Part shown: positions 27,697 to 42,227 of the stretch, piece by piece
How positions within the stretch are numbered: the stretch's first letter is position 1
Layout of the letters: each line of letters starts with the position of its first letter
Source: a virus
Taxonomy: Duplodnaviria > Caudoviricetes
Reading direction: 5' to 3' (one strand)
Length of the DNA stretch: 61,500 nucleotides
Virus record (IMG/VR): IMGVR_UViG_3300047509_000139
Coordinates: 1 to 61,500 of that record
Translations under genes and position numbers: made by a program
Notes under the pieces: model-generated
Told to the model about the DNA's origin: nothing
The model's input: the letters and a program-made list of their open reading frames with translations, nothing else
The model's database searches: none

Positions 27697-28101
27697 TCAC
27701 TGTATCGTTCCTTCCCGCTCTGCGTCTTTCGCCCTGAGCCACTGCCCGCGCGGACATATGCAGCGAGCACCGTTGACGAAGTAGCCCCAGCGAGGCGTCC
27801 ATCCATCCACTCCGATAGCATCCGCAGGCAGTTTGCACAACTCACAACCATCCGGAGCCTTCTCGGACTTTGCGGTTTCGCGTGCGATCTTGACCAGCTC
27901 AGCAATCGGGTTGTACCAGTTGGCAACGTTCTCCTGAAATATCTGGAGGACGAGTGATACGTGCATATCATCCTGGCAGTTGCGTTCAAGGGCAGCTACG
28001 ACTTCGCGCTTGCCGGTATCGCTCATGGCATCTAGCATCGGGATCGAGCTGAAAATTCTGTCGCATTCGTTTTTTACGTAATGCGTTATCGGTTTGCTCA
28101 T
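27697..28101 (-). CDS. putative replication accessory protein
   Basis: Directly follows the initiator; CELC...RCIC zinc motif. Confidence 0.55.
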   Translation of the reverse strand: MSKPITHYVKNECDRIFSSIPMLDAMSDTGKREVVAALERNCQDDMHVSLVLQIFQENVANWYNPIAELVKIARETAKSEKAPDGCELCKLPADAIGVDGWTPRWGYFVNGARCICPRGQWLRAKDAEREGTIQ

Positions 28102-28919
28102 AGATCTTTCCACCCTTTCCGTTGTTTCTCTGGTTCCGTTCTGGCCGGCGGTCGTATTGGGCGCTTCCACTCCACTTCCAAGAACTTTAGAGGCTTAGGT
28201 ATAAAACGGGGATTGCCTTGATATTCAGGCCGGTGTGCTCCAAGTGACGAGATCCTTTGACTTTTCTGATCAGGGTCTAGTGATTTCCAACAGAACTGAA
28301 ACGCCTGAGCAAAATCATCCTCGATGAATGCGCCGCCTAGTTTTTCGTATTCACTCTTGAACACTCCGAAGTCTTCGCTCTGCTTCCAGCGCTCATTAGA
28401 AAAGTGCCCGTTCTGCGGAACCTGAACGGACGTTGAACGAACGTTAGGAACGCCCTCTCTTGTTTTTGTAGTTGAAGTAGTTGTTGTAGTAGTAGGTATA
28501 GGTATAGGTTCAACAGCCGTTGTCAAGTCCGTTGTGGTATCCGTTTGAACAGATCTTGAACGAACGTTCAACGCTCGTTCGCGTCTTGCTTGCCCTGATT
28601 TTACTCCAGCAGTTTTCTTTTGAGCATGATAGGAGAATAGACGTTCGCGGACTTCGTCTACCTTGCGATGTACCAACCTGTCTCCATTTGGAGTTGAAAC
28701 CGCCTCGAACAGTACGCAAACTTCGCTCCATGCTGACGCGAACTCGCGCCCATCCGTACCAGATATGAGCTTGATCTGGTTTTTATCAGCCGGCAAACTT
28801 CCCTCCAAGTAACAATAATCGAGTAACTCTCGGTACAATCCGCGACCGGCAAGAGACAGCTTTAAGCGCGTTTCCGATTCCCTCCAGTCGGCTATGTACC
28901 ATGGGTAAGACTGAATCAA
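28098..28919 (-). CDS. DUF1376/YdaU-family phage replication initiator
   Basis: YPWYIADW...LSLAGRGLYRELLDYCY.EGSLP; low-complexity linker with repeats. Confidence 0.8.
   Translation of the reverse strand: MIQSYPWYIADWRESETRLKLSLAGRGLYRELLDYCYLEGSLPADKNQIKLISGTDGREFASAWSEVCVLFEAVSTPNGDRLVHRKVDEVRERLFSYHAQKKTAGVKSGQARRERALNVRSRSVQTDTTTDLTTAVEPIPIPTTTTTTSTTKTREGVPNVRSTSVQVPQNGHFSNERWKQSEDFGVFKSEYEKLGGAFIEDDFAQAFQFCWKSLDPDQKSQRISSLGAHRPEYQGNPRFIPKPLKFLEVEWKRPIRPPARTEPEKQRKGWKDL
28423..28580. repeat. iteron-like repeats, putative origin inside the initiator gene
   Basis: TTGAACGAACGTT at 28433-28445 and 28556-28568 plus partial TGAAC copies flanking a strand-skewed tract. Confidence 0.5.
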
Positions 28920-29226
28920 ATGACCGATTCCTCCCAGTAGCGCAGTAGATACTCAGCGAGTTGTTCGGCGGACGCACTTCTAGCGTCCAACGTGTTCGAA
29001 TCGTTCATTGTTTCCCCAAACCCACGAGGAACAGTCGTGGGGGGCCGGATGGCGGGTTTGGGAGTTGGTTTGGAACCACCCAAGCCCCGTGTCCGACTGC
29101 TTGCCTACGCCGCGGGGATCAGCCGCTTGCGGTTGAACATCAGGCTTTCAAACTATACTACGACGCGGACCGAATTGCAATAGAAAACTATATATCAAGT
29201 AGCGGACAGAAAGCAACGGGAAAATA

Positions 29227-29255
29227 TTGCAATCGCGCCGGAGACGGCTTATAAT
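29227..29255 (+). promoter_or_regulatory. promoter of tRNA block 1
   Basis: TTGCAA-17 nt-TATAAT. Confidence 0.85.
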
Positions 29256-29261
29256 CCTTGC

Positions 29262-29333
29262 ATGGACCACGCAACCATGCGACTAAGCAGTTCACTCCGG
29301 TCCTTGTTATCACTCTGTTTGTATAGTTGGTAA
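29262..29333 (+). CDS. leader peptide 1 MDHATMRLSSSLRSLLSLCLYSW
   Basis: ATG 6 nt after TATAAT; 15 of the last 16 codons are Ser/Leu/Cys/Tyr/Trp, the amino acids of block 1. Confidence 0.75.
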   Translation: MDHATMRLSSSLRSLLSLCLYSW

Positions 29334-29339
29334 TCCCAC

Positions 29340-29430
29340 CGAAGGGATGGGAGCAGTTGGCCGCTCCGCTCGTTTGCTAAACGAGAAATCCTTTTGGGAC
29401 ACGAGGGTTCGATTCCCTCCCCTTCGGCCA
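29340..29430 (+). tRNA. tRNA-Ser(GCT)
   Basis: Cloverleaf, long variable arm, loop TTGCTAA, G73-CCA. Confidence 0.85.
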
Positions 29431-29432
29431 TA

Positions 29433-29443
29433 GCTCTTTGACA
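29433..29443 (+). promoter_or_regulatory. boxA-like antitermination site
   Basis: GCTCTTTGACA versus rrn boxA GCTCTTTAACA. Confidence 0.65.
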
Positions 29444-29455
29444 TCTGAATCTTTT

Positions 29456-29543
29456 GGGTGGTTCGTCTAGCGGCAATGGCTCCTGGCTGTAACCCAGGCG
29501 ACGGTCTCCGTCTACATAGGTTCGAGTCCTATACCACCCACCA
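29456..29543 (+). tRNA. tRNA-Tyr(GTA)
   Basis: Cloverleaf with variable arm, loop CTGTAAC, CCA. Confidence 0.92.
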
Positions 29544-29546
29544 TGT

Positions 29547-29631
29547 GGCCCTCTGGCGTAATTGGCAGCCGCGCTGGTCCTAGAAACCAGTGCCTTCGGG
29601 CGTAAGAGTTCAAGTCTCTTGGGGGCCACCA
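29547..29631 (+). tRNA. tRNA-Leu(TAG)
   Basis: Loop CCTAGAA (C33), variable arm, CCA. Confidence 0.92.
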
Positions 29632-29639
29632 AAGTTTTT

Positions 29640-29723
29640 AGGCCCGTGGTGGAACGGTTTACGCAGCGCGCTCAAAACGCGTGGTCTTCGGACATGAGGG
29701 TTCGACTCCCTCCGGGCCTACCA
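29640..29723 (+). tRNA. tRNA-Leu(CAA)
   Basis: Loop CTCAAAA, variable arm, CCA. Confidence 0.92.
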
Positions 29724-29728
29724 AAGAT

Positions 29729-29804
29729 GGGGGATAGGCTCGACTGGGAGAGCGCCGGACTCCAAACCCGGTATTGCAGAGTTCGAATCTCTGATCCCCC
29801 GCCA
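29729..29804 (+). tRNA. tRNA-Trp(CCA)
   Basis: Loop CTCCAAA, G73-CCA. Confidence 0.9.
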
Positions 29805-29816
29805 AGAACATAATAC

Positions 29817-29891
29817 CCAGGGGATGCTGATCGGTTAAGCGGTCGCCTGCAAAGCGACTTGTGGCGGGTTCGATTCCCGCTCCCTGGTCCA
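29817..29891 (+). tRNA. tRNA-Cys(GCA)
   Basis: Loop CTGCAAA, U73-CCA. Confidence 0.9.
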
Positions 29892-29892
29892 C

Positions 29893-29979
29893 GGAAGGTA
29901 GGGGGCTCTGGGATGCCCAACCAGCTTCGAATACTGGCCCTCCGCAAGGATGATCGTTCGAATCGATTACCTTCCGCCA
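29893..29979 (+). tRNA. tRNA-Ser(CGA), 8/4 fold
   Basis: GGAAGGTA/TACCTTCC acceptor, ATCG/CGAT T stem, loop TTCGAAT. Confidence 0.8.
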
Positions 29980-29986
29980 CTTTCAC

Positions 29987-30071
29987 GGAGAGTACGGCAG
30001 TAGGATCTGCAATCGGGTTTGAATTCCGACGCTCCTTCGGGATGGCCGTTCGAGTCGGCTACTCTCCTCCA
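29987..30071 (+). tRNA. tRNA-Ser(TGA), 8/4 fold
   Basis: GGAGAGTA/TACTCTCC, GCCG/CGGC, loop TTTGAAT. Confidence 0.8.
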
Positions 30072-30079
30072 TGCCTTGC

Positions 30080-30164
30080 AGAGAGCGCCGCCGATGGTTG
30101 GCGACCGGTTTGGAACACCGGGGATTCCTTCGGGAATGCGGTTCGATTCCGCCGCTCTCTGCCA
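30080..30164 (+). tRNA. tRNA-Ser(GGA), 8/4 fold
   Basis: AGAGAGCG/CGCTCTCT, GCGG/CCGC, loop TTGGAAC. Confidence 0.85.
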
Positions 30165-30173
30165 AAATACCTG

Positions 30174-30202
30174 TTGCAATGTTCAAAACTTTGCTTTAGT
30201 AT
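30174..30202 (+). promoter_or_regulatory. promoter of tRNA block 2
   Basis: TTGCAA-17 nt-TAGTAT. Confidence 0.75.
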
Positions 30203-30253
30203 TGAATTGCGAAGGAACTGCCCTACCCAGTAGGCATTTAGACTGTTTAGACA

Positions 30254-30346
30254 ATGATTCGAACCGTCCAATTCGGGAGAAGGCCGCAAGGAACAAATCC
30301 AACGTGCGCCGCCATCATGGCAGACACGCATGAAGGCGGTCCTTAG
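30254..30346 (+). CDS. leader peptide 2 MIRTVQFGRRPQGTNPTCAAIMADTHEGGP
   Basis: 30 codons, 26 different; no Ser/Leu/Tyr/Trp; stop codon overlaps the antiterminator strand. Confidence 0.7.
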   Translation: MIRTVQFGRRPQGTNPTCAAIMADTHEGGP

Positions 30347-30384
30347 CCCCAGTTGAACAGGTGTTGTTAGTTTTCAACGGGGCT
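30345..30384 (+). promoter_or_regulatory. antiterminator hairpin
   Basis: AGCCCC-A-GTTGAA (30345-30357) pairs with TTCAACGGGGCT (30373-30384), which overlaps the terminator 5' arm. Confidence 0.75.
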
Positions 30385-30413
30385 GATCGAAAGATTGGCC
30401 CCGTTTTGTTTTT
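30376..30413 (+). terminator. intrinsic terminator (attenuator) before tRNA block 2
   Basis: AACGGGGCTGATC-GAAA-GATTGGCCCCGTT followed by TTGTTTTT. Confidence 0.85.
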
Positions 30414-30414
30414 G

Positions 30415-30488
30415 CGGGGTGTAGCTGGAAGGTCGAGCCCGTGGCCTGGGACCACGAGATTGGAGTTCAATTCTCCACACCCCGACCA
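30415..30488 (+). tRNA. tRNA-Pro(TGG)
   Basis: Loop CCTGGGA (C33), CCA. Confidence 0.88.
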
Positions 30489-30495
30489 TGAGTTT

Positions 30496-30573
30496 CGGGA
30501 TGTAGCGCAGTCTGGTCAGCGCACACGCCTCGGGCGCGTGGGGCCGCTGGTTCGAATCCAGCCATCCAGACCA
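30496..30573 (+). tRNA. tRNA-Pro(CGG)
   Basis: Loop CTCGGGC, CCA. Confidence 0.92.
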
Positions 30574-30656
30574 AGTTCGCTGCGGCGAGAATCGTCACGG
30601 AAGACGGGATGCTGCTGTAAGGGCGATAACCGTAGCACCCGCGCCACAGCGATTCA

Positions 30657-30668
30657 GTTCTTTGACAA
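30657..30668 (+). promoter_or_regulatory. boxA-like antitermination site
   Basis: GTTCTTTGACAA, preceded by a branched hairpin at 30577-30652. Confidence 0.65.
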
Positions 30669-30688
30669 TTGAAAGTCTTGATTCATAA

Positions 30689-30762
30689 GCGGGCGTGGTA
30701 TAGAGGCCGTGCCCTGGGCTTCCAACCCAGAGACGAGGATTCGAATTCCTCCACCCGCTCCA
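30689..30762 (+). tRNA. tRNA-Gly(TCC)
   Basis: Loop CTTCCAA, U73-CCA. Confidence 0.9.
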
Positions 30763-30770
30763 ATTTGCTT

Positions 30771-30845
30771 GCTGGGTTCGTCTAGCGGCTAGGATTGGGC
30801 GTTGCCAATGCTCAGACACGGGTTCGAGTCCCGTACCCCGCACCA
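30771..30845 (+). tRNA. tRNA-Gly(GCC)
   Basis: Loop TTGCCAA, CCA. Confidence 0.88.
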
Positions 30846-30846
30846 T

Positions 30847-30921
30847 GCCGGAATAGCTCAGGTGGAAGAGCACCTCACTCGTAACGAGGAGATCTGGTTT
30901 CGATTACCAGTTCTGGCTCCA
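30847..30921 (+). tRNA. tRNA-Thr(CGT)
   Basis: Loop CTCGTAA, CCA. Confidence 0.9.
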
Positions 30922-30995
30922 GCCGGTATAGCTCAGTGGAAGAGCAGTTGCTTGGTAAGCAACCGACGAGCGTTCAATTCGCTCTGCTGGCTCCA
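30922..30995 (+). tRNA. tRNA-Thr(GGT)
   Basis: Loop TTGGTAA, CCA. Confidence 0.92.
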
Positions 30996-31001
30996 AGTTT
31001 T

Positions 31002-31076
31002 GCCGCGCAAGCATTGCTGGCGATGCGCTGCTCCTGTAAAGCAGTGAATTCCGTTCGATTCGGAAGCGTGGCTCCA
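31002..31076 (+). tRNA. tRNA-Thr(TGT)
   Basis: Loop CCTGTAA (C33), CCA. Confidence 0.88.
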
Positions 31077-31077
31077 T

Positions 31078-31154
31078 CCCCTCCAAGCTCTCCGGGTGGG
31101 CGCTCGTCTGATACGCGAGTTATCGACTGTGTTCGATTCACAGGGAGGGGACCA
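31078..31154 (+). tRNA. tRNA-Ile(GAT)
   Basis: Loop CTGATAC, CCA. Confidence 0.85.
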
Positions 31155-31201
31155 AGTTCTATTGCGGAACCCGGTGCGTTATGCCGTAGCATATAAGCTT
31201 A

Positions 31202-31550
31202 ATGGCGAACCGATACGCATACGTAAAGAAGGCAATTGCTAAAAGGAAACTCTGGGCCGACAAACTTAAGGATCGTCCATGTGAGCGATGTGGTATCAGG
31301 TATCCGCCATGTTGTCATGGAGTGGCATCATAGAGATCGAGCCAAGAAGTCCTTTGGGATTGGCCCAGGCAATTTTACGCGCAGTCGCAAGTTGTTACTT
31401 GAAGAGATTGCCAAGTGCGATTTGTATTGCGCTAACTGTCATCGTTTGGTTGAGGAATCATTGCGGCGAAGTGGACCGGTGCCATGCGAGGCTCATAACC
31501 TCAGCGAGTCCGTTCAACTCGGAACGCCGCAACCATTTTTGGGGTGCTAG
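31202..31550 (+). pseudogene. HNH endonuclease inserted in the tRNA array, frameshifted
   Basis: KDRPCERCGIRYPP in one frame; VMEWHH...EEIAKCDLYCANCHR in the next; extra base near 31290. Confidence 0.8.
31462..31535 (+). tRNA. tRNA-Met(CAT), initiator-like
   Basis: TGCGGCG/CGCCGCA-A-CCA, loop CTCATAA. Confidence 0.8.
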
Positions 31551-31616
31551 CTCATTCAGGAGAGCGCCGGTCCTGCAAACCGGAGGCGCTGGGGGCAGAG
31601 CCCAGGCATTCCACCA
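31541..31616 (+). tRNA. tRNA-Ala(TGC)
   Basis: G3:U70, loop CCTGCAA (C33), atypical T loop GGCAGAG. Confidence 0.85.
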
Positions 31617-31621
31617 TTTTC

Positions 31622-31697
31622 GCAGGGGAGGCCGTCGTGGTCGAGGCGCTGGCCTGAAAAGCCAGACAAGCACGTTCGATTCGTGCCCCCTGCACCA
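31622..31697 (+). tRNA. tRNA-Phe(GAA)
   Basis: Loop CTGAAAA, CCA. Confidence 0.88.
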
Positions 31698-31700
31698 GAT

Positions 31701-31775
31701 GTGACCGTGGCCGAGTGGCTTAGGCGTGCGGCTGTGAACCGCTCCACGAGAGTTCAATTCTCTCCGGTCACCCCA
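31701..31775 (+). tRNA. tRNA-His(GTG)
   Basis: Loop CTGTGAA, C73-CCA; T rather than G at -1. Confidence 0.9.
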
Positions 31776-31782
31776 TTGTTGA

Positions 31783-31857
31783 TGGCGGGTCGTTCAGTGG
31801 CCAGGACGGCAGATTTTGAATCTGTTCACGCCGGTTCGAGTCCGGCCCCGCTAACCA
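31783..31857 (+). tRNA. tRNA-Gln(TTG)
   Basis: U1-A72, loop TTTTGAA, CCA. Confidence 0.9.
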
Positions 31858-31858
31858 T

Positions 31859-31933
31859 AGCCGGTTCATTCAGCGCTTAGGATTCCTGGCTCTGACCCAG
31901 GCCACGAAGGTTGAAATCCTTCACCGGCTACCA
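31859..31933 (+). tRNA. tRNA-Gln(CTG)
   Basis: Loop CTCTGAC; D loop GC and T loop TTG (swapped 19:56 pair). Confidence 0.85.
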
Positions 31934-31940
31934 TTTTCAA

Positions 31941-32018
31941 GCCCCCGTCGTTCAATGGATTAGGATACTGCGCTACGAACGCAGAGATTTGTAGGTTCGA
32001 GTCCTACCGGGGGTACCA
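31941..32018 (+). tRNA. tRNA-Arg(ACG)
   Basis: Loop CTACGAA, A20, CCA. Confidence 0.92.
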
Positions 32019-32022
32019 TTTT

Positions 32023-32100
32023 GACCGTGTAGCTCAGTTGGAAACGAGCGCTGTCCTCCGAAGGCAGAGGCCGCTGGTTCGATCCCAGCCACGGTCACCA
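32023..32100 (+). tRNA. tRNA-Arg(CCG)
   Basis: Loop CTCCGAA, A20, CCA. Confidence 0.92.
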
Positions 32101-32108
32101 AAGTTTAT

Positions 32109-32183
32109 GGGCGCGTCTTCCAGCGGCCAGGATGGGGCTCTGTCTAAGCCTCGACGGGAGTTCAACTCTCCTCGCGCCCGCCA
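32109..32183 (+). tRNA. tRNA-Asp(GTC)
   Basis: Loop CTGTCTA (U37), G73-CCA. Confidence 0.88.
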
Positions 32184-32189
32184 TATTAC

Positions 32190-32266
32190 GTCCGCATGGT
32201 GCAGACGGCTAGCATACCTGATTCTCAATCAGGAGATCGCGGGTTCGAGTCCCGCTGCGGACGCCA
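32190..32266 (+). tRNA. tRNA-Glu(CTC)
   Basis: Loop TTCTCAA, CCA. Confidence 0.92.
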
Positions 32267-32267
32267 C

Positions 32268-32343
32268 GGCCCAGAGCACGAACGGATGAGTGCCCTGACT
32301 TTCAATCAGGTGACAGTGGGGTCAGCACCCACCTGGGCTACCA
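32268..32343 (+). tRNA. tRNA-Glu(TTC)
   Basis: Loop CTTTCAA; atypical T loop GTCAGCA. Confidence 0.8.
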
Positions 32344-32350
32344 AGTTTTC

Positions 32351-32425
32351 GGGACCAAAGCTTAGATGGCGAAGCAGGAGGCTCTTAACCTTCAGAACTC
32401 GGTTCGATTCCGAGTGGTCCCACCA
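32351..32425 (+). tRNA. tRNA-Lys(CTT)
   Basis: Loop CTCTTAA, CCA. Confidence 0.9.
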
Positions 32426-32431
32426 AGTTGT

Positions 32432-32518
32432 TGGCAGGTACCCGAGCGGTAGCAGGGATCTGGCTGTTAACCAGACGGCGCAAGCCCATCGCAGGTTCGA
32501 ATCCTGCCCTGCCAGCCA
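32432..32518 (+). tRNA. tRNA-Asn(GTT) with long variable arm
   Basis: U1-A72, G73, loop CTGTTAA, GGC-GCAA-GCC variable hairpin. Confidence 0.88.
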
Positions 32519-32526
32519 ACATTCGA

Positions 32527-32600
32527 TTCCTGGTCGTCCAACGGCAGGGCGGTGTTCTTATAAAGCACTTACGGTGGTTCGACTCCACCCCAGGGAACCA
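32527..32600 (+). tRNA. tRNA-Ile(TAT)
   Basis: Loop CTTATAA, A73-CCA. Confidence 0.88.
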
Positions 32601-32601
32601 T

Positions 32602-32680
32602 GCGGGAGTCACCGGTATTGGCATCCGGTCCTAGTCCTACAAACTAGTGATTGCTGGTTCAATTCCAGCCTCCCGTACCA
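32602..32680 (+). tRNA. tRNA-Val(TAC)
   Basis: Loop CCTACAA (C33); 5-bp D stem. Confidence 0.85.
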
Positions 32681-32685
32681 TTTTC

Positions 32686-32761
32686 GGGAAGGTAGCTCAA
32701 ACGGCAGAGCGCAGTCCTTTTAAGTCTGGCGATCGGGGTTCGAGGCCCCGCCTTCCCACCA
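32686..32761 (+). tRNA. tRNA-Lys(TTT)
   Basis: Loop CTTTTAA, CCA. Confidence 0.88.
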
Positions 32762-32763
32762 AG

Positions 32764-32842
32764 ATCCCCGTATCGGTCCTGTTTCCTAAACAGGTAAAGC
32801 CGTAATTGGACGATGCGAGTTCGAGTCTCGCCGGGGATACCA
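32764..32842 (+). tRNA. non-canonical tRNA-Arg(CCT), D arm absent from its usual position
   Basis: 7-bp acceptor, CCTGT-TTCCTAA-ACAGG, CGT-AATTGG-ACG 3' of the anticodon arm, canonical T arm, CCA. Confidence 0.75.
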
Positions 32843-32843
32843 C

Positions 32844-32920
32844 GGGCGCGTACCGGCCTCGGTTTCTACCCGAGTTCACCGTAATGGACGATGCGGGTTC
32901 AAGTCCCGCCGCGCCTTCCA
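32844..32920 (+). tRNA. non-canonical tRNA-Arg(TCT), D arm absent from its usual position
   Basis: 7-bp acceptor, CTCGG-TTTCTAC-CCGAG, CGT-AATGG-ACG 3' of the anticodon arm, canonical T arm, CCA. Confidence 0.75.
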
Positions 32921-33031
32921 CCTCGTTCGTTGAGCTTGCCGCACGCGATGGCATCGCGCTTGCGCACCGCTCTCCGAAGCTTGCGCCGTTTCTGCTCGTT
33001 GCGCCACTTCGTCTGTTCTCGTGTAGTCATC

Positions 33032-33244
33032 TCAGTTTCGAGCCTTTGCCCTGGAGTCGATGGCCGGCCCAGGCATGGAAGTTATGAACCACCGGTCATC
33101 GTCGTTCTCGCCGAGTGCCCAGAGCAGGGTCTTGCATGCAGCTATCTTGCTGTAGACGATGCGAGGATCGTGAGCTTTGCGGCAGTCCATGGAGAGCAGT
33201 GCTTTCAGTTTTTCTCTCAACTCCTGCTTTGTCTTGACGCTCAT
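33032..33244 (-). CDS. hypothetical protein
   Basis: AGGAG upstream of MSVKTKQ; ATGA overlap. Confidence 0.5.
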   Translation of the reverse strand: MSVKTKQELREKLKALLSMDCRKAHDPRIVYSKIAACKTLLWALGENDDDRWFITSMPGPAIDSRAKARN

Positions 33245-33570
33245 TGCGAACTCCTTGGCAGCGCTGGGCCGTCGCTCAGCCGATTCTTCAACCTGCCCTG
33301 ATTCGCCGGAGTAAAGTCTTCCTGGTCCAGCTTTTCGCGCGGGTTGAGAGCTTGCAACGCTCCGTCCTTGGTCAACCAAAACAGAGAGTCGCCGCCGAAT
33401 GGTATGGTACTACCCTGGCGTACGCATGCGTTTCCCTCGACAACCATTTGCATCCAGTCCACATAATCATCGTGATCTACGCCGGCAACGAAGCGGTTGC
33501 GGTAGGACATCCGCATCTTGTTCGGCAAGCCCAAGGCATGGCGAGCGAGTTCCCTTTGTTTCTCTGTCAT
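33241..33570 (-). CDS. conserved phage protein (ARHALGL...SYRNRF type)
   Basis: QRELARHALGLPN...SYRNRFVAG. Confidence 0.7.
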   Translation of the reverse strand: MTEKQRELARHALGLPNKMRMSYRNRFVAGVDHDDYVDWMQMVVEGNACVRQGSTIPFGGDSLFWLTKDGALQALNPREKLDQEDFTPANQGRLKNRLSDGPALPRSSQ

Positions 33571-33758
33571 GGTTGGACCTTCTGCCCAATTCGTGTATTC
33601 CACTGAAAGGCTGCACCGCCTTGGTCTCCACCGATTGGCCCGGTGGCCCCGCATGGGCATGTGACCCGAACGCCACGAGGCGATGCTAGAAACGATAAAT
33701 CTTCTCCGGATTCACCGCACCACGGGCACGGTAGCAGTTTATCAGTCTTGACGCTCAC
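33567..33758 (-). CDS. Lar-family zinc-ribbon protein
   Basis: LLPCPWCG...CPCGATGP...WNTR. Confidence 0.75.
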   Translation of the reverse strand: MSVKTDKLLPCPWCGESGEDLSFLASPRGVRVTCPCGATGPIGGDQGGAAFQWNTRIGQKVQP

Positions 33759-34126
33759 TTCGTCTTCTCCAGAATGGCTATCGCGCGATCCGCCAATGCG
33801 CTCGTGATACCGGTAGAGAACTCGGTCTGCACGAGGTTCGGTTGAAAACCGTCAACGTCTCCATCATCGTCTATGATCACGAAAGATTCCAGGTCGAATT
33901 TGTGCCCGTTCTCGTCGAACCACTTCCAGATCTCACGCCCGCGCGTTGGAGATTCCAGGAGCAGAGAACCAGGCTTCGGATACTCGCGCAGGTCCGGAGT
34001 CTTGCCGACCACCTGAGCGCGGACTCCCCAAGATGACAGATATTCTCGGAGCTTTACCAACGGCGTACCGTAGCGCATTGTTTCCGAGGTCCGCAAGCAC
34101 GCGGAACTCATGGATTTCCTATCCAA
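33755..34126 (-). pseudogene. HAD domain of the Swiss Army Knife RNA-repair type, N-terminus apparently missing
   Basis: VVGKTP, RGREIWKW, FVIIDDD, LVQT..STGIT present; no N-terminal DxDG motif. Confidence 0.6.
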
Positions 34127-34626
34127 TCTCCAAACAAATCATGCGGAGGAAAGATCGGGGATAGCAGCGTTGAGTTTTTCCAGTTGAACAGGATTTTGCC
34201 AGTTCGCCCATTGCCGTCAACGAACGGATGAATCAGTTCGAACTCTTTGTAGAATTCCAGCGGCGTGAGGTTATCTTTCTGCTCAAACAAGAAGGCAAGT
34301 TTTAGCGGTACTTCCTCCCAATCTGGGAATATTCGCGAACCGATACGCACGCGTACCTGACGGAGGCCGTTTAGATTCTTGCGTGGCTCAATCATCTGCC
34401 CAAGCATGATCGCATCCTTTAATACAGGCCCACTCTGCGGACATGCTTGTGCAAGCGTCCACGCCCAGGCATTGAGCATCCAACCAACGCGGGTTATCCC
34501 GTCAAGAGCAGATACATCGTGCCCCTGCCTGCGAACTTCTTCAGCCACGTAATCGATAACACCGTACTTCAATCGGCACCTTCCTGCAATTGTTCCGGAA
34601 GTGGTGCAGGTATTGCACCATTCCAT
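34108..34626 (-). CDS. Fic/Doc-family protein (start uncertain)
   Basis: FELIHPFVDGNGRTGK. Confidence 0.85.
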   Translation of the reverse strand: MEWCNTCTTSGTIAGRCRLKYGVIDYVAEEVRRQGHDVSALDGITRVGWMLNAWAWTLAQACPQSGPVLKDAIMLGQMIEPRKNLNGLRQVRVRIGSRIFPDWEEVPLKLAFLFEQKDNLTPLEFYKEFELIHPFVDGNGRTGKILFNWKNSTLLSPIFPPHDLFGDWIGNP

Positions 34627-34877
34627 AGTTCGTCCTCATAGATCGGCTTGCCGAACTTGATCTGCGGTTGTACTCCGCAAGACGGGCACCAGAGGTGGTC
34701 AACGTATCGGACCTCGCCACCGCCGCCTCCGGCACAACCCCACTCTCTGCCCCACCAGATCGAGCGGCCGGTTCGGACGGTCTGGATGAACGCTCCAGTC
34801 TTCTTGCACTTGTAGCCGCCGTCCGGCTGACGCACGGCGTGCGCAGCGAGAAATAGCCAGTCAGTCTTTCGCATCAT
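34569..34877 (-). CDS. hypothetical zinc-binding protein
   Basis: CKKT...CPSC; co-directional. Confidence 0.55.
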   Translation of the reverse strand: MMRKTDWLFLAAHAVRQPDGGYKCKKTGAFIQTVRTGRSIWWGREWGCAGGGGGEVRYVDHLWCPSCGVQPQIKFGKPIYEDELWNGAIPAPLPEQLQEGAD

Positions 34878-35154
34878 GCGGTACCTTTCCGGACACCACG
34901 AAGTCCGCGAACTGCTTCAGCACCGCGCTGTAGCGGTCGTGATGCACTTCCGGATTCGAATGGAAATCCACTTCGGCCTCTTCCAGCCTGCGCCTCAACA
35001 GGTCTTTCGATCAGGTCGTCTATCATTCGCTGCAATCTGCTCCTTCTTGCTGATCAAATTCTTCGTAAGCGCCCATGTCTTGACGCGCGTCGTCTAGAGA
35101 TTCATTGAACATTTCATCGTTGTTGCGTTGCTCTTCCGTGTATTTTGCGTATGT

Positions 35155-35192
35155 CATGCGTTGAATATACCAGTATTCAAGTTGGATGTCAA
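35155..35192 (-). promoter_or_regulatory. repeated promoter/operator copy 4
   Basis: TTGACA-17-TATATT, palindrome, ATG 6 nt downstream. Confidence 0.85.
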
Positions 35193-35215
35193 CAGAAAAG
35201 TGATGTGCAAGAAGT

Positions 35216-36726
<1,511 letters not shown>

Positions 36727-36730
<4 letters not shown>

Positions 36731-37521
36731 TTTGCAACGTTCCAAAACAGAGCACCAGGAGACGCCTGTGTCTTTATGAACTGCCACGCCTTGGCATCGT
36801 AGTTTGTACACGACGGAAACGGCGGAGGTGCCTTGGCGTCCTGCTCGAACCTTTCCGGTGCAACCGTCAGGAACGCCCTCCCCGCATCCGGAACTGCGCC
36901 GATCTGAACTGCATGGAACTGAGCGCACGGCCAAGCCAACTGAAGTGCGCGTGTGAGCACGCCGCTTCCGGCTACGGTCCACACCTCAGTCGGCATTACT
37001 GGCAGCGATAACGCAAAGTAGGCAAGAGCACTGATGAACTCCACCGTATCCAACCCGAACGGTAGAAACGTTGCTCCAGAGATGGCACAGTAAGAACGCG
37101 CACGCGCACGGACCACAGACATGTATCCGACCGGGACCTCCACAATTCGCGCTCCCATGCGTTCAGCTTCCAGCGTCAGCGGATACCGTTCGGACCGCTG
37201 AGCGCAAAATATCGTGGCTCTCTTTCCAGTTGCAATAGCGGCATGAGCTAGCGCCACCTGAGCATATCCGTAAACCGGTGAAGCATAGACATATTCTTCC
37301 TCCGAACCATTCATCAGCAAGGGCAAGATGCGGGCTTTCGTTCCTCCAGGCACCAGATCGTCGCGGACCACGGTTATGCCTTCCACTTCCTCGATCACAG
37401 CCGGGGGTCCGAAACAGGTATCGGATGACAACGATATGCCGGAATCGAACAATCCCTGCTGTGCCGTCGTTCTAGCCACGCTTGCGCCTCGGAACAACTG
37501 GTTCCTGGACAGCCCGGCCAA
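36727..37521 (-). CDS. PLP-dependent enzyme-like protein (Trp synthase beta/cysteine synthase fold; start uncertain)
   Basis: VVRDDLVPGGTKAR, GYAQVALA, VAGSGVL, YDAKAW. Confidence 0.75.
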
Positions 37522-37673
37522 GGTGCTCCATCATCGCTGGATTGTCGCGCAGAGCATTGCGGAGTTCGACGATGCGTTTGGATGCGCGCACGACACCCGC
37601 TGGATCGACGCCACCCATGCATCGGTTCAGATCCCGTTTGGCACTTTCGAGTTCCGACAGCAGTACCGCACGA

Positions 37674-37916
37674 TCAGGCATCGTTGTCCCTCAGTTCGTA
37701 CACGGTGATACCGGAGTCTCGATCTCTGGCGATGCATACGATCACATGTCCGGCCTTCCTGAGATCGCTCACACGGCCGGTATACTTCAGCGATATTTCC
37801 GCCAACTCCCGGTTGGTAGCCCGCCCTCGCTGTAGCCGCTCCAGAATGGCGCGGCATTGGGCAGAAAGGCGGGCTACCTCTGGCGGAGTAGCCCATTGAA
37901 GACTCAGTTGATCCAT
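37674..37916 (-). CDS. small winged-helix protein
   Basis: ILERLQRGRATNRELA...RVSDLRKAGH. Confidence 0.7.
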   Translation of the reverse strand: MDQLSLQWATPPEVARLSAQCRAILERLQRGRATNRELAEISLKYTGRVSDLRKAGHVIVCIARDRDSGITVYELRDNDA

Positions 37917-37933
37917 GGCCGCCTCAGCGCCGA

Positions 37934-38614
37934 TTAAACAGGCTCCGCGTAATAGGTTCGCTCGCCGCTCTTCTCGGATTTCTCCGAACGCACTCCCTTG
38001 CCGGTAAGCGATTCTGCTCCGCGCTTAATCGTCCCGCCGAGCGCAGCCCGCACCGTGGATTCGCCCCAGCCGGTGCGCTCCATGATCTGAGCTATCGTTG
38101 CTCCACTCTTTCGCTGGAGCATGGCGACAACTTCCAGCGTCTTCGGTCCGAACGCTTCGTGACCATTGCTCGATGCCCTTGCTTTTCGGGCTTTCTTCTC
38201 CGCGGCCGGCTTTGCGACCTTCGCTGTCTTTGCCGCCTTTGCCGCCTTCGGCTTGCGCACTAGCTTATTCTTCGTTGCCATTTCCTCTCCTTCTCCTTTG
38301 CTTGCTTCCGCTGCCGCGATCTCTTCCTCGGTAGGACCGAGGCGCGAATCAGCGAGCCGCTGGATGACCTTCCAGATTCTACCCAGCATGTCTGTATTCG
38401 ACCGGACTTTGTTGACTGGCTTGCAATCCGCAAAGCCCGGTATACCAGCAAAGCTGTTCCACAACGCTACCAGCTTGCTACCCGGCCAGTCCGCGCCGAT
38501 GCGTAGCAGTTCTTCTTTCGCACTGAAGCAGATCTTATCCGGCTCGACCTCAGGATCAATCGGTTTTTCTACCGCAGCCACATTTAGATCAGAATCGATC
38601 GTGAAATAAAACAT
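37934..38614 (-). CDS. DUF3489-domain protein
   Basis: KTLEVVAMLQRKSGATIAQIMERTGW..TVR...GERTY; GGAGG upstream. Confidence 0.8.
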   Translation of the reverse strand: MFYFTIDSDLNVAAVEKPIDPEVEPDKICFSAKEELLRIGADWPGSKLVALWNSFAGIPGFADCKPVNKVRSNTDMLGRIWKVIQRLADSRLGPTEEEIAAAEASKGEGEEMATKNKLVRKPKAAKAAKTAKVAKPAAEKKARKARASSNGHEAFGPKTLEVVAMLQRKSGATIAQIMERTGWGESTVRAALGGTIKRGAESLTGKGVRSEKSEKSGERTYYAEPV

Positions 38615-38633
38615 CGTTCGTGTTTCCTCCGAC

Positions 38634-38665
38634 TTGAATGTACCAGTATTCAAAGTGCATGTCAA
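38634..38665 (-). promoter_or_regulatory. repeated promoter/operator copy 5
   Basis: TTGACA-17-TACATT; TTGAATA-N6-CATTCAA. Confidence 0.8.
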
Positions 38666-38870
38666 GAGAAAAGTGCACTGAGATTTAGTTGCTCCGGCTC
38701 CGGCGCGGTTTCTGCCGCCCGCGCGCGCTTCTTCGCGGCCCGCTTCTCCTCGCGCGCCTTCTGCCGCACCGCAAACCCATTGAGTCCGTCCAGCCGCCAC
38801 TTCACTTCGTCCCGAATTTCTCGCGAAGACGGAGTAAAACGGTTGAACGGATAAGGAAACCGCTCCTGCC

Positions 38871-39917
38871 TCACAAACCGCAACCTCCCTCACATTCCAT
38901 GGCGAAGCGGTTCTGCTTTTCGTTACCAAAGTCGATCTTATCTATAGGCTTGCAGGCTTTGTGCAGATAGAGTTTCTGCTTTAGATCGCGCGATACTAAA
39001 ACGTTCGGCGCTCGCATACCGGCGTCGATCCTTATAAGTGCATCGTGAGTAGTTGGCTGCTGCATGTGCCGCGCCCACGTCGGGTCATCCTTGAACGGGC
39101 ACATAATGCATGCGGAGCCGTAGACCTTGTGCGGGACGGAGTGCTGTAGCTCCCGGTCGCAATCATCGCGCGTAAGCATGCGGCCATCTTCGATCAACGG
39201 GAAATGAACGCGCCAGTTTGCCTTCTGTCGTCGCCCTGTCGTTACTGATATAACCGTCTCTTCGCCGAATAGCCCTTCCTGAACGGTATCTTCTTTATCC
39301 GCCGTCTCAAAACGCCGCGCTATATCGTATGCTCGTGAACGTTCGTCCCAGGAGATGCCGATGTACTGATGAACCACCATATCCTTTGGCAGACGATCTC
39401 CTGGCGACAGGCCGAGCAGTTCATACCTAATCGCGCGCTCGATGACCTCGATCTTGTATTCCTTCGTGCACTGACGTGGAACGATGGATAGATTGCGTCC
39501 TTCTATCGCGGCCGTATAGGCCGGAATGGTTGCGAACCGGTGGTGCATGTTCTCAGTAAGAGCATCGCCATTCGGATGATTAGGAGATACCGCATCATCG
39601 CGAAGCAGGTCCGAGCTAATCTGTCCTCGCGTGCGTACGAGGATCGGGCAACCGTACCCACCGTGGTTCGAACTCTTCACTAGCGGAGACTTAGAGTCCA
39701 GAAACGCGGCCTGCGTTCCAAGCCAATCCAGATGAGCGTAGAACGATTCCTCCGGGTCGGGTAAACCTTGCCGTCGTTCTTCTCCGCCTATTTCATCCTG
39801 TGTATCTGATATAATCGCGTAATCGAACCGCTGGATATCTCCGCGCATCGAAAGCAGGTACAGCCACGTTGACTGAACTCCCGCGCCAAGGTTGAGGATA
39901 TGCAATTCAAAAGTCAC
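38871..39917 (-). CDS. PAPS reductase/PP-loop family protein
   Basis: NLGAGVQS, SDTQDE, RQCTKEYKI, SACIMCPF, ECEGGCGL. Confidence 0.85.
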   Translation of the reverse strand: MTFELHILNLGAGVQSTWLYLLSMRGDIQRFDYAIISDTQDEIGGEERRQGLPDPEESFYAHLDWLGTQAAFLDSKSPLVKSSNHGGYGCPILVRTRGQISSDLLRDDAVSPNHPNGDALTENMHHRFATIPAYTAAIEGRNLSIVPRQCTKEYKIEVIERAIRYELLGLSPGDRLPKDMVVHQYIGISWDERSRAYDIARRFETADKEDTVQEGLFGEETVISVTTGRRQKANWRVHFPLIEDGRMLTRDDCDRELQHSVPHKVYGSACIMCPFKDDPTWARHMQQPTTHDALIRIDAGMRAPNVLVSRDLKQKLYLHKACKPIDKIDFGNEKQNRFAMECEGGCGL

Positions 39918-40201
39918 CGCGCCAACTCCCGCGCCCGCTCGTTCATCCTGGTTTCCAGCCGTTGCCGCTCCATCCTAATCACCGCGCGGAGATCTTCCTC
40001 CGTTGCCATACGCACGAACGTCCTCGCTTTGCCTACCCTACACGATGGACAGATGGCCGGAAGCCAAGGAGCAACGTACATCGCGACGCACGTCGGACAG
40101 AATACGTCGATGCCGCGGAACGGCTCTAGTTGCTCAGGCACCGACCAGGAACCTCGCTTCCCGAGCTTCGGTGATGGACCGAAACTTGTAGATCCTGTCA
40201 C
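39914..40201 (-). CDS. small zinc-finger protein
   Basis: CPTC...CPSC. Confidence 0.5.
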   Translation of the reverse strand: MTGSTSFGPSPKLGKRGSWSVPEQLEPFRGIDVFCPTCVAMYVAPWLPAICPSCRVGKARTFVRMATEEDLRAVIRMERQRLETRMNERARELAR

Positions 40202-40506
40202 CGTGCTCGATCACTACGGGAGTCGGTTTGTGAGCATCGAGCGACTTCCCGCACTCTAGGCAGCCGTCCCCGCTCCTCGGAGTCTTGCGCTGCGGTTCAC
40301 GAAATGGATGATCTTGTGGCATTGCTGGTGACCTCCTTCGGTACATAGACTGGATGCAGTATCGTCGGCTTGTTCGGACGCTGAGGAACCGGCAACGGTT
40401 TGATGCCCATTAGCACGAACTTGCGAAACCACTTCCGAACGGAGATTGCAGCGACGTGCCACTCAAGGCAGGGAAGAGGATCGCAGTAGCGGCAAGCGTT
40501 AGGCAT

Positions 40507-40968
40507 CTATCCGGTTACCTCCATCAACAGATCCATTTGCCCCTTGGCCGCGCCGGTATGGAGCCACGAGAACCTTTTCTCATAGCGGGCCATGAAGTCG
40601 TCCAGGTCTTTGATGTCGCCCCAAACCTCGGCACCGCGCTGCCGTTCGCGTTCCTGCCACCGGAACTGGCGGCAGACTCCGCATACCTTTGAATCTCCTG
40701 GGATACAGGTACACTGTCGGCGATCACCACGCTGCTTGAACTCGCACCATAGCACCAGCGTCAACCCGGCGATCTTGAAGTCGTCACCGATGTACCGGAC
40801 GAACAGGTAGTCACACTGGCCAGGCTCGCCGGAGGAGAACGTCTGCGCCGGTCCCTGAAACACTCCGCGCGTAATCCGAACGGCCCGCCACTGCCTCCAC
40901 GCCATGAAGTCGCAGCACTGCCGCGTTACATGGCGCTCCAGAACCTTGATCGAAGTGGACTGCTTCAT
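40507..40968 (-). CDS. VRR-NUC-like PD-(D/E)xK nuclease
   Basis: ERHVTRQC, GEPGQCDYL, WCEFK. Confidence 0.7.
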   Translation of the reverse strand: MKQSTSIKVLERHVTRQCCDFMAWRQWRAVRITRGVFQGPAQTFSSGEPGQCDYLFVRYIGDDFKIAGLTLVLWCEFKQRGDRRQCTCIPGDSKVCGVCRQFRWQERERQRGAEVWGDIKDLDDFMARYEKRFSWLHTGAAKGQMDLLMEVTG

Positions 40969-41103
40969 AACTTCACAATACCAAACATTCCACGTCAATC
41001 GTCATCTGCCGCCGGCCAGAATCCTGATAGCCGATCCCATTCGGTACGGCCATCTTGATCGGTAGCATGGCAAGAACATTCACATTGCCAGTCGTCGTCT
41101 ACT

Positions 41104-41466
41104 TCATCTCCGTCTCCGTAACCGATACGCCTTCAATTCATCTAGCCGCGATTTCAGGATCGCCATAGCCTTGCCGAATTCTTCTGGATCTTCTTCCATC
41201 GCCTCCCACTTCTCCATCGCTTCAGCCGCCGCGATGCAGATGTTGAGGAACTTCAACTCCGGCCGCTTTGGGCATTTCAGGATATGAGCTAACAGACGCT
41301 TGCTGCGTTCAGCATCCGACAACCCGCCGTAGTCCGATAGTTCTCCGCAGTAGGAGCAGTACGCCCGACCGATGGCATGCCACGTAGCCGCCTTGATCAG
41401 CCGCACGCGGTCCTGCTTCGGCGTGTGCAAGAGATCGGTCGAAAGTTGAGTGGCCCAGTCTTTCAT
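41104..41466 (-). CDS. zinc-finger hypothetical protein
   Basis: CSYCG...HILKCPKRP. Confidence 0.65.
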   Translation of the reverse strand: MKDWATQLSTDLLHTPKQDRVRLIKAATWHAIGRAYCSYCGELSDYGGLSDAERSKRLLAHILKCPKRPELKFLNICIAAAEAMEKWEAMEEDPEEFGKAMAILKSRLDELKAYRLRRRR

Positions 41467-42227
41467 ATCCCCGCCTCTGGAGCCCATATGGAATGCTGGT
41501 TAGAGTGCGCCCAGTACTTCTTCTCATCCGATCTCATCATCAACAAATGCGCCAACACGTCGTCTGTTGGTACGAGCGCTCCCGCCCAAGTCCCGTCAAA
41601 TAGTCCTATCGGATGCATGCAGAGAGCGCACAGGAGCCGAACGCCCACGTCTCCGCGCTTCCGGTCTGGAGTCGTCGTCATGGCTAACGTTGGACGTAGC
41701 CTGCGGAACATGTAGATTATCTTGCTGCGCGGGCTCGTTTCCAGGAACGTGCCGGTCATGACGTAAGCCTGATAAGCCCACTCCGAGACGTGCCGCTTGA
41801 AGGTTTCCAGTGCTTTCAGTTCCGCCTCAAAGCTCCATGACCGCGCCGCACCGATTGTATCGATCAACATCGTTGCTTGGTTCTGCCGCCGTCCATAGGT
41901 GAAGTAAAACCCTTTGGAATCGCGCCAGATCTGCAATCGTTTGCCGTCGCGGTAGGATTCCCAGGAATTGCGAAGAGTCACCGATTCGTCTACGTCAACG
42001 TTTCGGCATACGTGAAGGCTCGGCTCCGGATCAAAGGTCTGGGAAAGCCTTTCAGCGAACGGATACGACGGGTGAATTACCATCCGCATCCCCTTGACCG
42101 GCATCGGCATGCCGGCCCATTCGCCTTGCCGCTTCGCTTCTCGTGCGATGGCAGCGTGAACCTCGTCCCAGGAAACGCTTCCGGGAGTGATCTTGGCTCG
42201 CTTTGCTAGGTCCGTTAGGATGGCCAC
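41463..42227 (-). CDS. conserved hypothetical protein
   Basis: GGAGG before GTG; FLETSPRS..YMFRRLRPT, LCMHPIG. Confidence 0.7.
   Translation of the reverse strand: MAILTDLAKRAKITPGSVSWDEVHAAIAREAKRQGEWAGMPMPVKGMRMVIHPSYPFAERLSQTFDPEPSLHVCRNVDVDESVTLRNSWESYRDGKRLQIWRDSKGFYFTYGRRQNQATMLIDTIGAARSWSFEAELKALETFKRHVSEWAYQAYVMTGTFLETSPRSKIIYMFRRLRPTLAMTTTPDRKRGDVGVRLLCALCMHPIGLFDGTWAGALVPTDDVLAHLLMMRSDEKKYWAHSNQHSIWAPEAGI

Follow-up and report, generated by a model that had tools for sequence, protein, structure and literature searches.

Why phages carry transfer RNA (tRNA) genes is an old open question. Leader-peptide attenuators control the trp, his, thr and ilvGMEDA operons, with the thr and ilv leaders being multivalent. 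T-boxes, which control synthetase or amino-acid genes, do so by direct binding of uncharged tRNA. The general leader-peptide scheme of amino-acid biosynthetic operons has been set out (PMC1183508), attenuators built on leaderless polycysteine short open reading frames (ORFs) are described in mycobacteria (bioRxiv 10.1101/834739), and in Anabaena a tRNA array, the trn operon, is held under the repressor TrcR (PMC10272220). Recent papers argue that phage tRNAs stand in for host tRNAs that defence nucleases have destroyed (PMC10264068, PMC11555353, PMC11464382). Here we analysed an entire IMG/VR virus record (IMGVR_UViG_3300047509_000139, Caudoviricetes; 61.5 kb, completeness rating 73%; hereafter the window) and focus on a 250-nucleotide (nt) spacer on its plus strand (30165-30414), which lies between a tRNA-Ser and a tRNA-Pro gene. 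From modelled RNA folds and by analogy with leaders in other phages, we lean towards the spacer being a ribosome-mediated transcription attenuator that would gate eight tRNA genes (Pro, Pro, Gly, Gly, Thr, Thr, Thr and Ile) by gauging decoding capacity. This reading is favoured because the architecture is complete and consistent, the codon match between leader and tRNAs gives it a rationale, and an analogous leader in another phage family shows covariation.

The initial annotation of this DNA had described a promoter, a 30-codon ORF and mutually exclusive hairpins ahead of a second block of tRNA genes, and all three are present, at 30174-30202, 30254-30346 and 30345-30413, respectively. The block in question (block 2; 30415-31154, plus strand) comprises tRNA-Pro(tgg), Pro(cgg), Gly(tcc), Gly(gcc), Thr(cgt), Thr(ggt), Thr(tgt) and Ile(gat). 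The putative promoter, P2, is sigma-70-like, with TTGCAA (30174-30179) and TAGTAT (30197-30202) separated by 17 nt on the plus strand and a predicted start near 30209. With a score of 8/12 it is weak and falls under our generic scan cut-off of 9/12. P2 and the promoter in front of block 1 (P1; 29227-29255, plus strand; TTGCAA, 17 nt, TATAAT; 10/12 matches) both belong to a TTGCAA-N16-18-TANNNT family that is enriched in the window, with six copies against 0.68 expected and 0/100 shuffles reaching six. The leader ORF (30254-30346, plus strand) encodes MIRTVQFGRRPQGTNPTCAAIMADTHEGGP and ends in a TAG stop. Within and beyond it lie three plus-strand segments. Segment 1 (30263-30283; codons 4-10) is the anti-antiterminator partner of segment 2 in the minimum free-energy fold of 30254-30372. 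Segment 2 (30341-30362) overlaps the last codon and the stop, and pairs either with segment 1 or, via 30345-30357, with segment 3 (30373-30385), which is both the 5' arm of a terminator and the 3' arm of an antiterminator. Pairings 1:2, 2:3 and 3:4 form the classical three-helix layout.

The intrinsic terminator (30376-30413, plus strand) consists of a 13-bp stem (30376-30405; seven G-C of 13 pairs) capped by a four-nucleotide GAAA loop and followed by the tail TTGTTTTTGC, its T tract running to 30413, with a folding energy of -22.2 kcal/mol. The reverse strand has no T tract, and this was the sole strong terminator-like site within 28800-33200. Its T tract ends 1-2 nt before tRNA-Pro at 30415 and, because no promoter fits between the two, Pro(tgg) and Pro(cgg) would be made only by read-through; a scan of 30414-31154 likewise reported no promoter-like sites between the terminator and the block 2 genes. 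Transcripts from block 1 would reach this terminator as well. The competing antiterminator (30345-30357 with 30373-30385) has 12-13 pairs with one bulged A and a predicted energy of -18.0 kcal/mol, its 5' arm beginning inside the TAG stop as first described. The energy gain from this pairing (-14.1 kcal/mol) was equalled in 6/1000 dinucleotide shuffles of the upstream 80 nt. As a whole, the spacer folds at -86.9 kcal/mol (z = -4.8), with 0/200 shuffles equally stable, and a further hairpin that had been proposed inside the ORF, around 30309-30339, shows up in sub-folds.

We then examined folding with and without a ribosome footprint, using nascent RNA at three lengths with 31 nt masked around the ribosomal A site. 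RNA ending at 30372 formed nine segment 1:2 pairs, while with the RNA end at 30388-30391 and no ribosome the antiterminator formed with its 12-13 pairs. The antiterminator also formed at all A-site positions tested from codon 2 to codon 25, and disappeared (0 pairs) only once the A site had moved to codon 28, codon 30 or the stop. These staged folds lend in silico support to the earlier suggestion that a ribosome at the stop would mask the antiterminator and that an earlier stall would free it.

The ORF had further been noted for sampling many codons once, with 26 distinct codons including all four for Gly, three for Pro, three for Thr, and CGA, AGA and AGG. This count is correct and codon diversity by itself is unremarkable, at least 26 distinct codons also being present in 10/132 null ORFs of similar length; what the count had lacked was a rationale, and this is supplied by the sampled codons being those of the eight downstream tRNAs. 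Using simple wobble rules of our own (G34 reads C/U; C34 reads G; U34 reads A/G; A34 reads all four), the ORF contains cognate codons for 8/8 block 2 tRNAs (two Pro, two Gly, three Thr and one Ile), these being CCA and CCG for Pro, GGA, GGG, GGC and GGT for Gly, ACG (twice), ACC and ACA for Thr, and ATT and ATC for Ile. The match to block 2 amounts to 12/29 codons and 13/29 residues, with a match to block 1 of 1/29 codons. Among 566 small null ORFs from the rest of the window, five reach this codon fraction, 12 cover eight anticodons and one does both. The codon match to block 2 tRNAs thus gives the leader a functional rationale.

The sequence elements, the pairings that exclude one another and the match between codons and tRNAs are all observed, and a working scheme can be drawn from them, in which we infer the translation of the ORF, its start site, the kinetic coupling and the biological signal. 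Transcripts would start at P2 near 30209 or arrive by read-through from block 1. During fast translation, a ribosome on the last codons or the stop would cover 30345-30357, the terminator would fold, and polymerase would stop 1-2 nt before tRNA-Pro. With slow decoding of Pro, Gly, Thr or Ile codons, as might arise if the matching tRNAs run short or are uncharged or cleaved, the ribosome would stall on or near segment 1; segment 2 would then pair with the terminator 5' arm and polymerase would continue into the tRNA genes. Absence of a ribosome would likewise give read-through. Such a circuit would produce phage tRNAs on demand and turn them off once sufficient.

A second leader stands in front of block 1 (29340-30164, plus strand), which comprises tRNA-Ser, Tyr, Leu, Leu, Trp, Cys, Ser, Ser and Ser. 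This 23-codon ORF (29262-29333, plus strand; MDHATMRLSSSLRSLLSLCLYSW) has its stop 6 nt before tRNA-Ser and is probably leaderless, because its ATG is 7 nt past the P1 -10 box. Of its residues, 15/22 are amino acids that block 1 serves (Ser, Leu, Cys, Tyr or Trp), and under the same wobble rules 12/22 codons are strictly cognate with 8/9 tRNAs covered, which 0/566 null ORFs reach. Its match to block 2 is 1/22, so that the two leaders are reciprocal. A terminator following the block 1 ORF was sought and discounted, as the stop-to-tRNA distance is just those 6 nt. Without a terminator and being weakly structured, the block 1 leader must therefore differ in its mode of action, if any. A duplex of -16.6 kcal/mol is possible between the block 1 leader and the tRNA 5' strand.

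An analogue with evolutionary depth was found in phiCbK-like phages (Dolichocephalovirinae), where the leader ORF abounds in Tyr/Phe, Val, Ile, Gln and Arg codons. In the Caulobacter phage CcrBL10 (L015, 9610-9818) a promoter is followed after 7 nt by the ATG of a 31-codon ORF, MSKSYRQFVQIQVVRNFRAGRSRMDDGGTFI, then by a 15-bp terminator and a block of Val, Ile, Ile, Val, Gln, Gln, Ile, Arg and Arg tRNAs, with Phe coming first in close relatives. A distant-mode search returned 49 records, of which nine more (L028-L036; Caulobacter and Brevundimonas phages) were fetched to give ten sequences. Promoter, in-frame ORF and terminator are kept in 10/10, as is an ORF core of Tyr-Arg-Gln-(Phe/Asn)-Val-...-Ile-Gln-Val-Val-Arg, and the tRNA blocks begin with Phe or Tyr (3/5 scanned), Val and Ile, running on to Gln and Arg in CcrBL10. 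In every lineage an 11-nt stretch of the ORF is approximately a copy of the terminator 3' arm, the two changing together. Across the ten-sequence alignment the antiterminator is paired in 110/110 cells with three compensatory pairs (slid controls: 23-55%), the terminator in 140/140 cells with three compensatory pairs, and a 1:2 hairpin between Val-Arg codons and the antiterminator segment in 95% with two compensatory pairs, although these compensatory changes stem from two lineages (Colossus, and CcrSC with CcrBL9) and hence from few independent events. For the CcrBL10 antiterminator, 0/1000 shuffles were equally good. The phiCbK-type leader is analogous, not homologous, to the window leader. 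In most phiCbK-like records the leader ORF is unannotated as a gene, and in phiCbK, Karma, Swift and Colossus the terminator alone is annotated. The phiCbK genome paper, which gives tRNAs as the only RNA elements found with Rfam, makes no mention of this leader, and in it the strings 'attenuat' and 'leader' occur 0 times (PMC3556154).

Codon-matched leaders were also seen in further phages. Tunturiibacter phage Tunturi_5 has an annotated 49-amino-acid protein, gp308, with a Shine-Dalgarno (SD)-like site ahead of 13 tRNAs, which covers 12/12 anticodons with 27/48 codons cognate; its last codons pair with the terminator 5' arm and, in a masked fold, a ribosome at the stop abolishes this pairing. 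Xanthomonas phages XacN1 (L013, 69-152) and Xoo-sp13 (L026, ~1510-1600) have promoter-proximal, apparently leaderless mini-ORFs, MNKPYYKRYYAKA and MNKLYYKRYYKKLP, preceding Lys, Lys and Tyr tRNAs, with their Lys/Tyr richness arising partly from an internal 14-nt repeat. Here the 5' acceptor strand of the first tRNA (tRNA-Lys) doubles as the 3' arm of a hairpin that differs by a single compensatory change between XacN1 and Xoo-sp13, and the leader may control tRNA folding or processing rather than termination. In XacN1 that tRNA-Lys copy is truncated. An uncultured 485-kb phage (LR745208) contains a promoter-proximal Arg/Gly-rich ORF before Arg-Arg-Arg-Gly-Gly tRNAs and a second, Glu/Asp-rich, before Glu-Asp-Glu tRNAs. 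Two small ORFs abutting tRNAs in T5 (L038, record 28000-41600; p 0.003 and 0.007), one of them a CxxC protein, match weakly and were not counted. In T5, the small annotated ORFs T5.065 (before Lys and Val) and T5.070 (before Cys) end 1-6 nt before tRNA genes, again with weak codon matches.

Another uncultured phage, an unrelated 118-kb IMG/VR contig (L008/L010; 42-43% G+C against 56% in the window), shares a single piece with the window: the tRNA-Pro(tgg) gene, 96% identical over 82 nt (window 30408-30489; L008 3298-3379). In IMG/VR, a 26-mer of this tRNA-Pro gave one match, which is that contig, and there were none in JGI metagenomes or in GTDB (185,579 species genomes). Because the tRNA-Pro is near-identical in unrelated phages and its 26-mer is absent from these species genomes, the sequences suggest that tRNA genes move between phages. 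The contig has a leader of its own, with a TG-extended promoter and an SD followed by a 32-codon ORF, MNINTFKLSPSSLSPSLVVLPLPSPFLSLLLS, rich in Pro, Ser and Leu. Eleven tRNAs come after it in the order Pro, Pro, Leu, Ser, Leu, Leu, Leu, Leu, Ser, Ser and Ser, with the final one on the opposite strand. Of its codons 20/31 are cognate, 11/11 tRNAs are covered, and 0/566 null ORFs reach this fraction. This layout lies at 3000-3304 of L008, where a pair of highly stable hairpins (-101.7 kcal/mol over 275 nt) with a T run sits directly before tRNA-Pro.

To place these cases in a wider frame, we surveyed 18 loci from 15 phages with ARAGORN, taking ATG ORFs of 8-60 codons that end within 330 nt 5' of a tRNA block and scoring each by a binomial against the codon usage of the locus's own small ORFs. 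Across all 18 loci, 10/187 sense ORFs reached p<0.01, compared with 21/1662 for mismatched blocks of the same phage (Fisher 6e-4) and 3/188 for antisense ORFs (Fisher 0.04).

Several observations weigh against reading the spacer as an attenuator. Taken alone, the codon statistics for the ORF are moderate (binomial p 0.007; 5/566 null ORFs), the limit used to define blocks (gaps up to 130 nt) was set after the window had been seen, and more generally each statistic is moderate and was examined post hoc. The initial annotation saw no clear SD, and we also found none for ORF 30254-30346, the anti-SD duplex being +0.5 kcal/mol, in a phage where an SD of -6 kcal/mol or better is found at about half of the long ORFs versus 10% of random positions. 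Its ATG is ~45 nt from the predicted start and hence the ORF is not leaderless, in which it differs from the block 1 and phiCbK-type leaders, which look leaderless; by eye, no -10 box is suitably spaced from 30254, and a leaderless reading was rejected. The last three cognate codons (Gly28, Gly29 and Pro30) are positioned where stalling would favour termination. Furthermore, the full-length minimum-energy fold keeps the terminator under every ribosome mask, and the switch must therefore be kinetic; a terminator in the full-length fold is usual among attenuators.

The comparative evidence has weak points of its own that count on the same side. No homologue of the spacer was found in the phage collection, IMG/VR, JGI metagenomes or GTDB, which leaves no covariation at the locus itself. 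Megablast of 29300-32800 gave no match in the phage collection, a distant blastn of 30100-30700 gave 198 records with none of the 20 matches listed extending upstream of query position 316 (the tRNA-Pro start), and an exact 30-mer of the terminator had 0 matches in IMG/VR. A search of sequencing runs returned no RNA run with window sequence, a result that says nothing either way on expression. In L008 a ribosome-dependent switch was rejected, as masked folds show no alternative fold, and the Tunturi_5 antiterminator is weak, with 60/1000 shuffles equally good. When the survey was limited to the 14 non-discovery loci, p<0.01 was reached by 7/151 sense ORFs against 20/1455 for mismatched blocks (Fisher 0.01) and 2/148 for antisense ORFs (Fisher 0.09). 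One antisense ORF had p = 3e-6, and low-complexity ORFs therefore inflate the survey test. The survey is only suggestive, and the individual cases weigh more.

Of the other explanations, the one that survives best is that the terminator ends the block 1 unit and that P2 with ~200 nt of structured RNA yields a stable small RNA, with the Pro-Ile tRNAs arising by constitutive leaky read-through and both ORF and pairing being incidental. We judge this unlikely, yet it has substance, since an unusually structured spacer (z = -4.8) that ends in a strong terminator resembles a small RNA gene, the ORF has no SD, and the terminator is always retained in the full-length minimum-energy fold. In the T5 GenBank record (NC_005859), moreover, seven features labelled 'stable RNA with unknown functions' lie between genes of the tRNA region, RNAI, RNAIII, RNA1 and RNA2H being among the stable RNAs named, and this precedent also counts against an attenuator. 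A small RNA would, however, leave unexplained why the stop codon and the 5' edge of the antiterminator arm coincide exactly, why 8/8 anticodons are covered, why the block 1 leader shows a reciprocal codon match, and why the three-helix design covaries in phiCbK-type leaders. A search of 30165-30414 against Rfam with E up to 1 matched no non-tRNA family and neither a riboswitch nor a T-box model, which also disfavours a small RNA of a catalogued family.

A genuine RNA switch with a trigger other than the ribosome, such as a small ligand, uncharged tRNA in a T-box-like manner, a phage or host protein or polymerase speed, is in our view improbable. It would account for the mutual exclusivity of terminator and antiterminator with an untranslated ORF, which suits an ORF that is neither SD-led nor leaderless, and the ~135 nt of structured RNA 5' of segment 2 could serve as a sensor. 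The Rfam result argues against the ligand and T-box versions, and the antiterminator has a single bulged base in place of a T-box-like bulge. Under any non-ribosomal trigger the codon-tRNA match and the placement of the stop would be coincidence, and the analogous phage leaders keep their ORF in frame in 10/10 phages. That chance alone gave an ordinary terminator in a G+C-rich spacer both its ORF and its upstream complement is very improbable. In its favour, the single statistics are modest (6/1000, 5/566, 10/132) and all post hoc, and p = 3e-6 was reached by an antisense control ORF elsewhere; against it, several independent features fall together at this site, a second matching leader with 0/566 null ORFs as good stands in the same array, and the design recurs with compensatory changes in other phages.

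The wider array and its surroundings were characterised as follows. ARAGORN called 30 tRNA genes on the plus strand (29340-32761), and Rfam added a tRNA that ARAGORN had missed (31541-31613; 38.4 bits), giving an array of at least 30 genes. These run in the order block 1, spacer, block 2, a disrupted HNH gene and the remaining tRNAs. Within block 2, a 115-nt gap (30574-30688) separates the Pro pair from Gly, Gly, Thr, Thr, Thr and Ile; no gene was called in it, acceptor-stem-like pairing between its ends (TCGCTG... and ...CAGCGA) is possible, and it may be a decayed tRNA. The HNH endonuclease gene at 31202-31550 looks split by a frameshift, with a CxxC N-terminal part from ATG 31202 and the HNH core (31236-31550) in another frame, and could be a pseudogene, a sequencing error or a case of recoding. 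Three more tRNA-like sequences (32267-32350 and 32768-32925), with anticodon loops that would read GAA, AGG and AGA, were picked out by eye and through repeat families D2 and D10 and are unconfirmed. A repeat, AGYTCTTTGACA..TGAA (family D18), occurs at 29432-29456 and 30656-30680, immediately 5' of tRNA-Tyr and tRNA-Gly, respectively, with a similar stretch, TCTTTGACAA, 5' of tRNA-Trp in Tunturi_5 (L012, ~14043-14067); the spacing of this motif is unsuited to a sigma-70 promoter of the adjoining tRNA. TTGACA at 30662 was rejected by eye as a tRNA-Gly promoter, as its -10 would fall within the tRNA, and it is absent from the promoter scan.

The array is flanked on the minus strand by genes for phage replication and modification, among them those for DnaB, helicases, methyltransferases, a primosomal-type protein with DUF1376 and a Fic/DOC protein. 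On the same strand, five near-identical promoter-like sites (10200, 12277, 16845, 35164 and 38637; TTGACAT..CTTGAATACTGGTATATT, with an extended -10) are probably the main early or middle promoters for minus-strand genes. Searching for relatives through neighbouring proteins gave six loci for DUF1376, two for DnaB, one for HNH and none for a 139-amino-acid protein. None of these DUF1376, DnaB and HNH loci had tRNAs, and their DNA similarity to the window was confined to the DUF1376 gene (28558-28918). The DUF1376 protein search also found one Bryobacteraceae metagenome-assembled genome at 43% identity, which we do not take as a host assignment. The sole sequencing run listed with window sequence is a DNA run from a soil metagenome, possibly the source, and mapping of that run gave a single identical contig over the spacer with no variants there, which is neutral on expression.

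Should the attenuator reading of the spacer be correct, the phage may produce these tRNAs only when decoding falters. Phages would then measure tRNA supply and respond to it, and static 'codon compensation' would become a feedback circuit. More tentatively, and as a possibility short of an expectation, many tRNA-carrying phages might gate tRNA blocks by decoding-capacity sensors, that is, mini-ORFs that sample one or a few codons per downstream isoacceptor and convert ribosome speed into terminator read-through. Under this wider reading, tRNA supply would be turned on only when host decoding fails, for which codon mismatch, host shut-off or tRNA-cleaving defence nucleases could be the cause, and turned off once restored. 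Such mini-ORFs may often be leaderless and located at the promoter and, where a terminator is lacking, may be coupled to folding or processing of the first tRNA. The class would take in both leaders of the window, those of the two uncultured phages, the phiCbK-type leader, the Lys/Tyr mini-ORF shared by XacN1 and Xoo-sp13, and gp308 of Tunturi_5. This would account for the terminators that are annotated without comment before tRNA blocks in phiCbK, Karma, Swift and Colossus, and the phiCbK-type element, being in a cultured phage of a genetically tractable host, is directly testable. It also bears on annotation, as such mini-ORFs are mostly unannotated or labelled 'hypothetical protein'.

Set beside the systems described at the outset, the spacer is closest to the biosynthetic attenuators, with which it shares a promoter, a short ORF containing regulatory codons, helices 1:2, 2:3 and 3:4, an intrinsic terminator and an antiterminator that would be selected by stalling; like the thr and ilv leaders, the block 2 leader would sense several amino acids together. 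Unlike them, it would regulate tRNA genes, it is phage-borne, its ORF lacks an SD, and the codons are single and spread to cover each isoacceptor, not runs of one amino acid. In common with the mycobacterial attenuators, a short 5' ORF would sense the decoding of certain codons and control downstream genes, and the block 1, phiCbK-type, XacN1 and Xoo-sp13 leaders also look leaderless; however, the mycobacterial leaders sense one amino acid and control cysteine-related protein genes, and ORF 30254-30346 is not leaderless. A T-box is also a leader RNA in which terminator and antiterminator report the state of a tRNA, but the spacer matches no T-box model and its antiterminator has no T-box-like bulge. 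The T5 stable RNAs resemble the spacer as structured non-tRNA RNAs of 100-200 nt between phage tRNA genes, although they have no sequence relation to it, and to our knowledge they have neither terminator-antiterminator pairs nor codon-matched ORFs. The Anabaena trn operon, too, is a long array of accessory tRNA genes, silent by default and induced by translational stress, but there a protein repressor acts at initiation on a chromosomal or plasmid-borne array, whereas in the window a translated leader and a terminator would act in a virus. A full-text literature search, informative at the level of titles and abstracts and extending to sources other than the older T5 tRNA-region papers, found no description of leader-ORF control of tRNA genes. 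We also know of no other attenuator with tRNA itself as its output. Ribosome-mediated attenuation is thus a known mechanism, and what would be new here is its tRNA output, the sampling of codons isoacceptor by isoacceptor, and its presence as a viral element.

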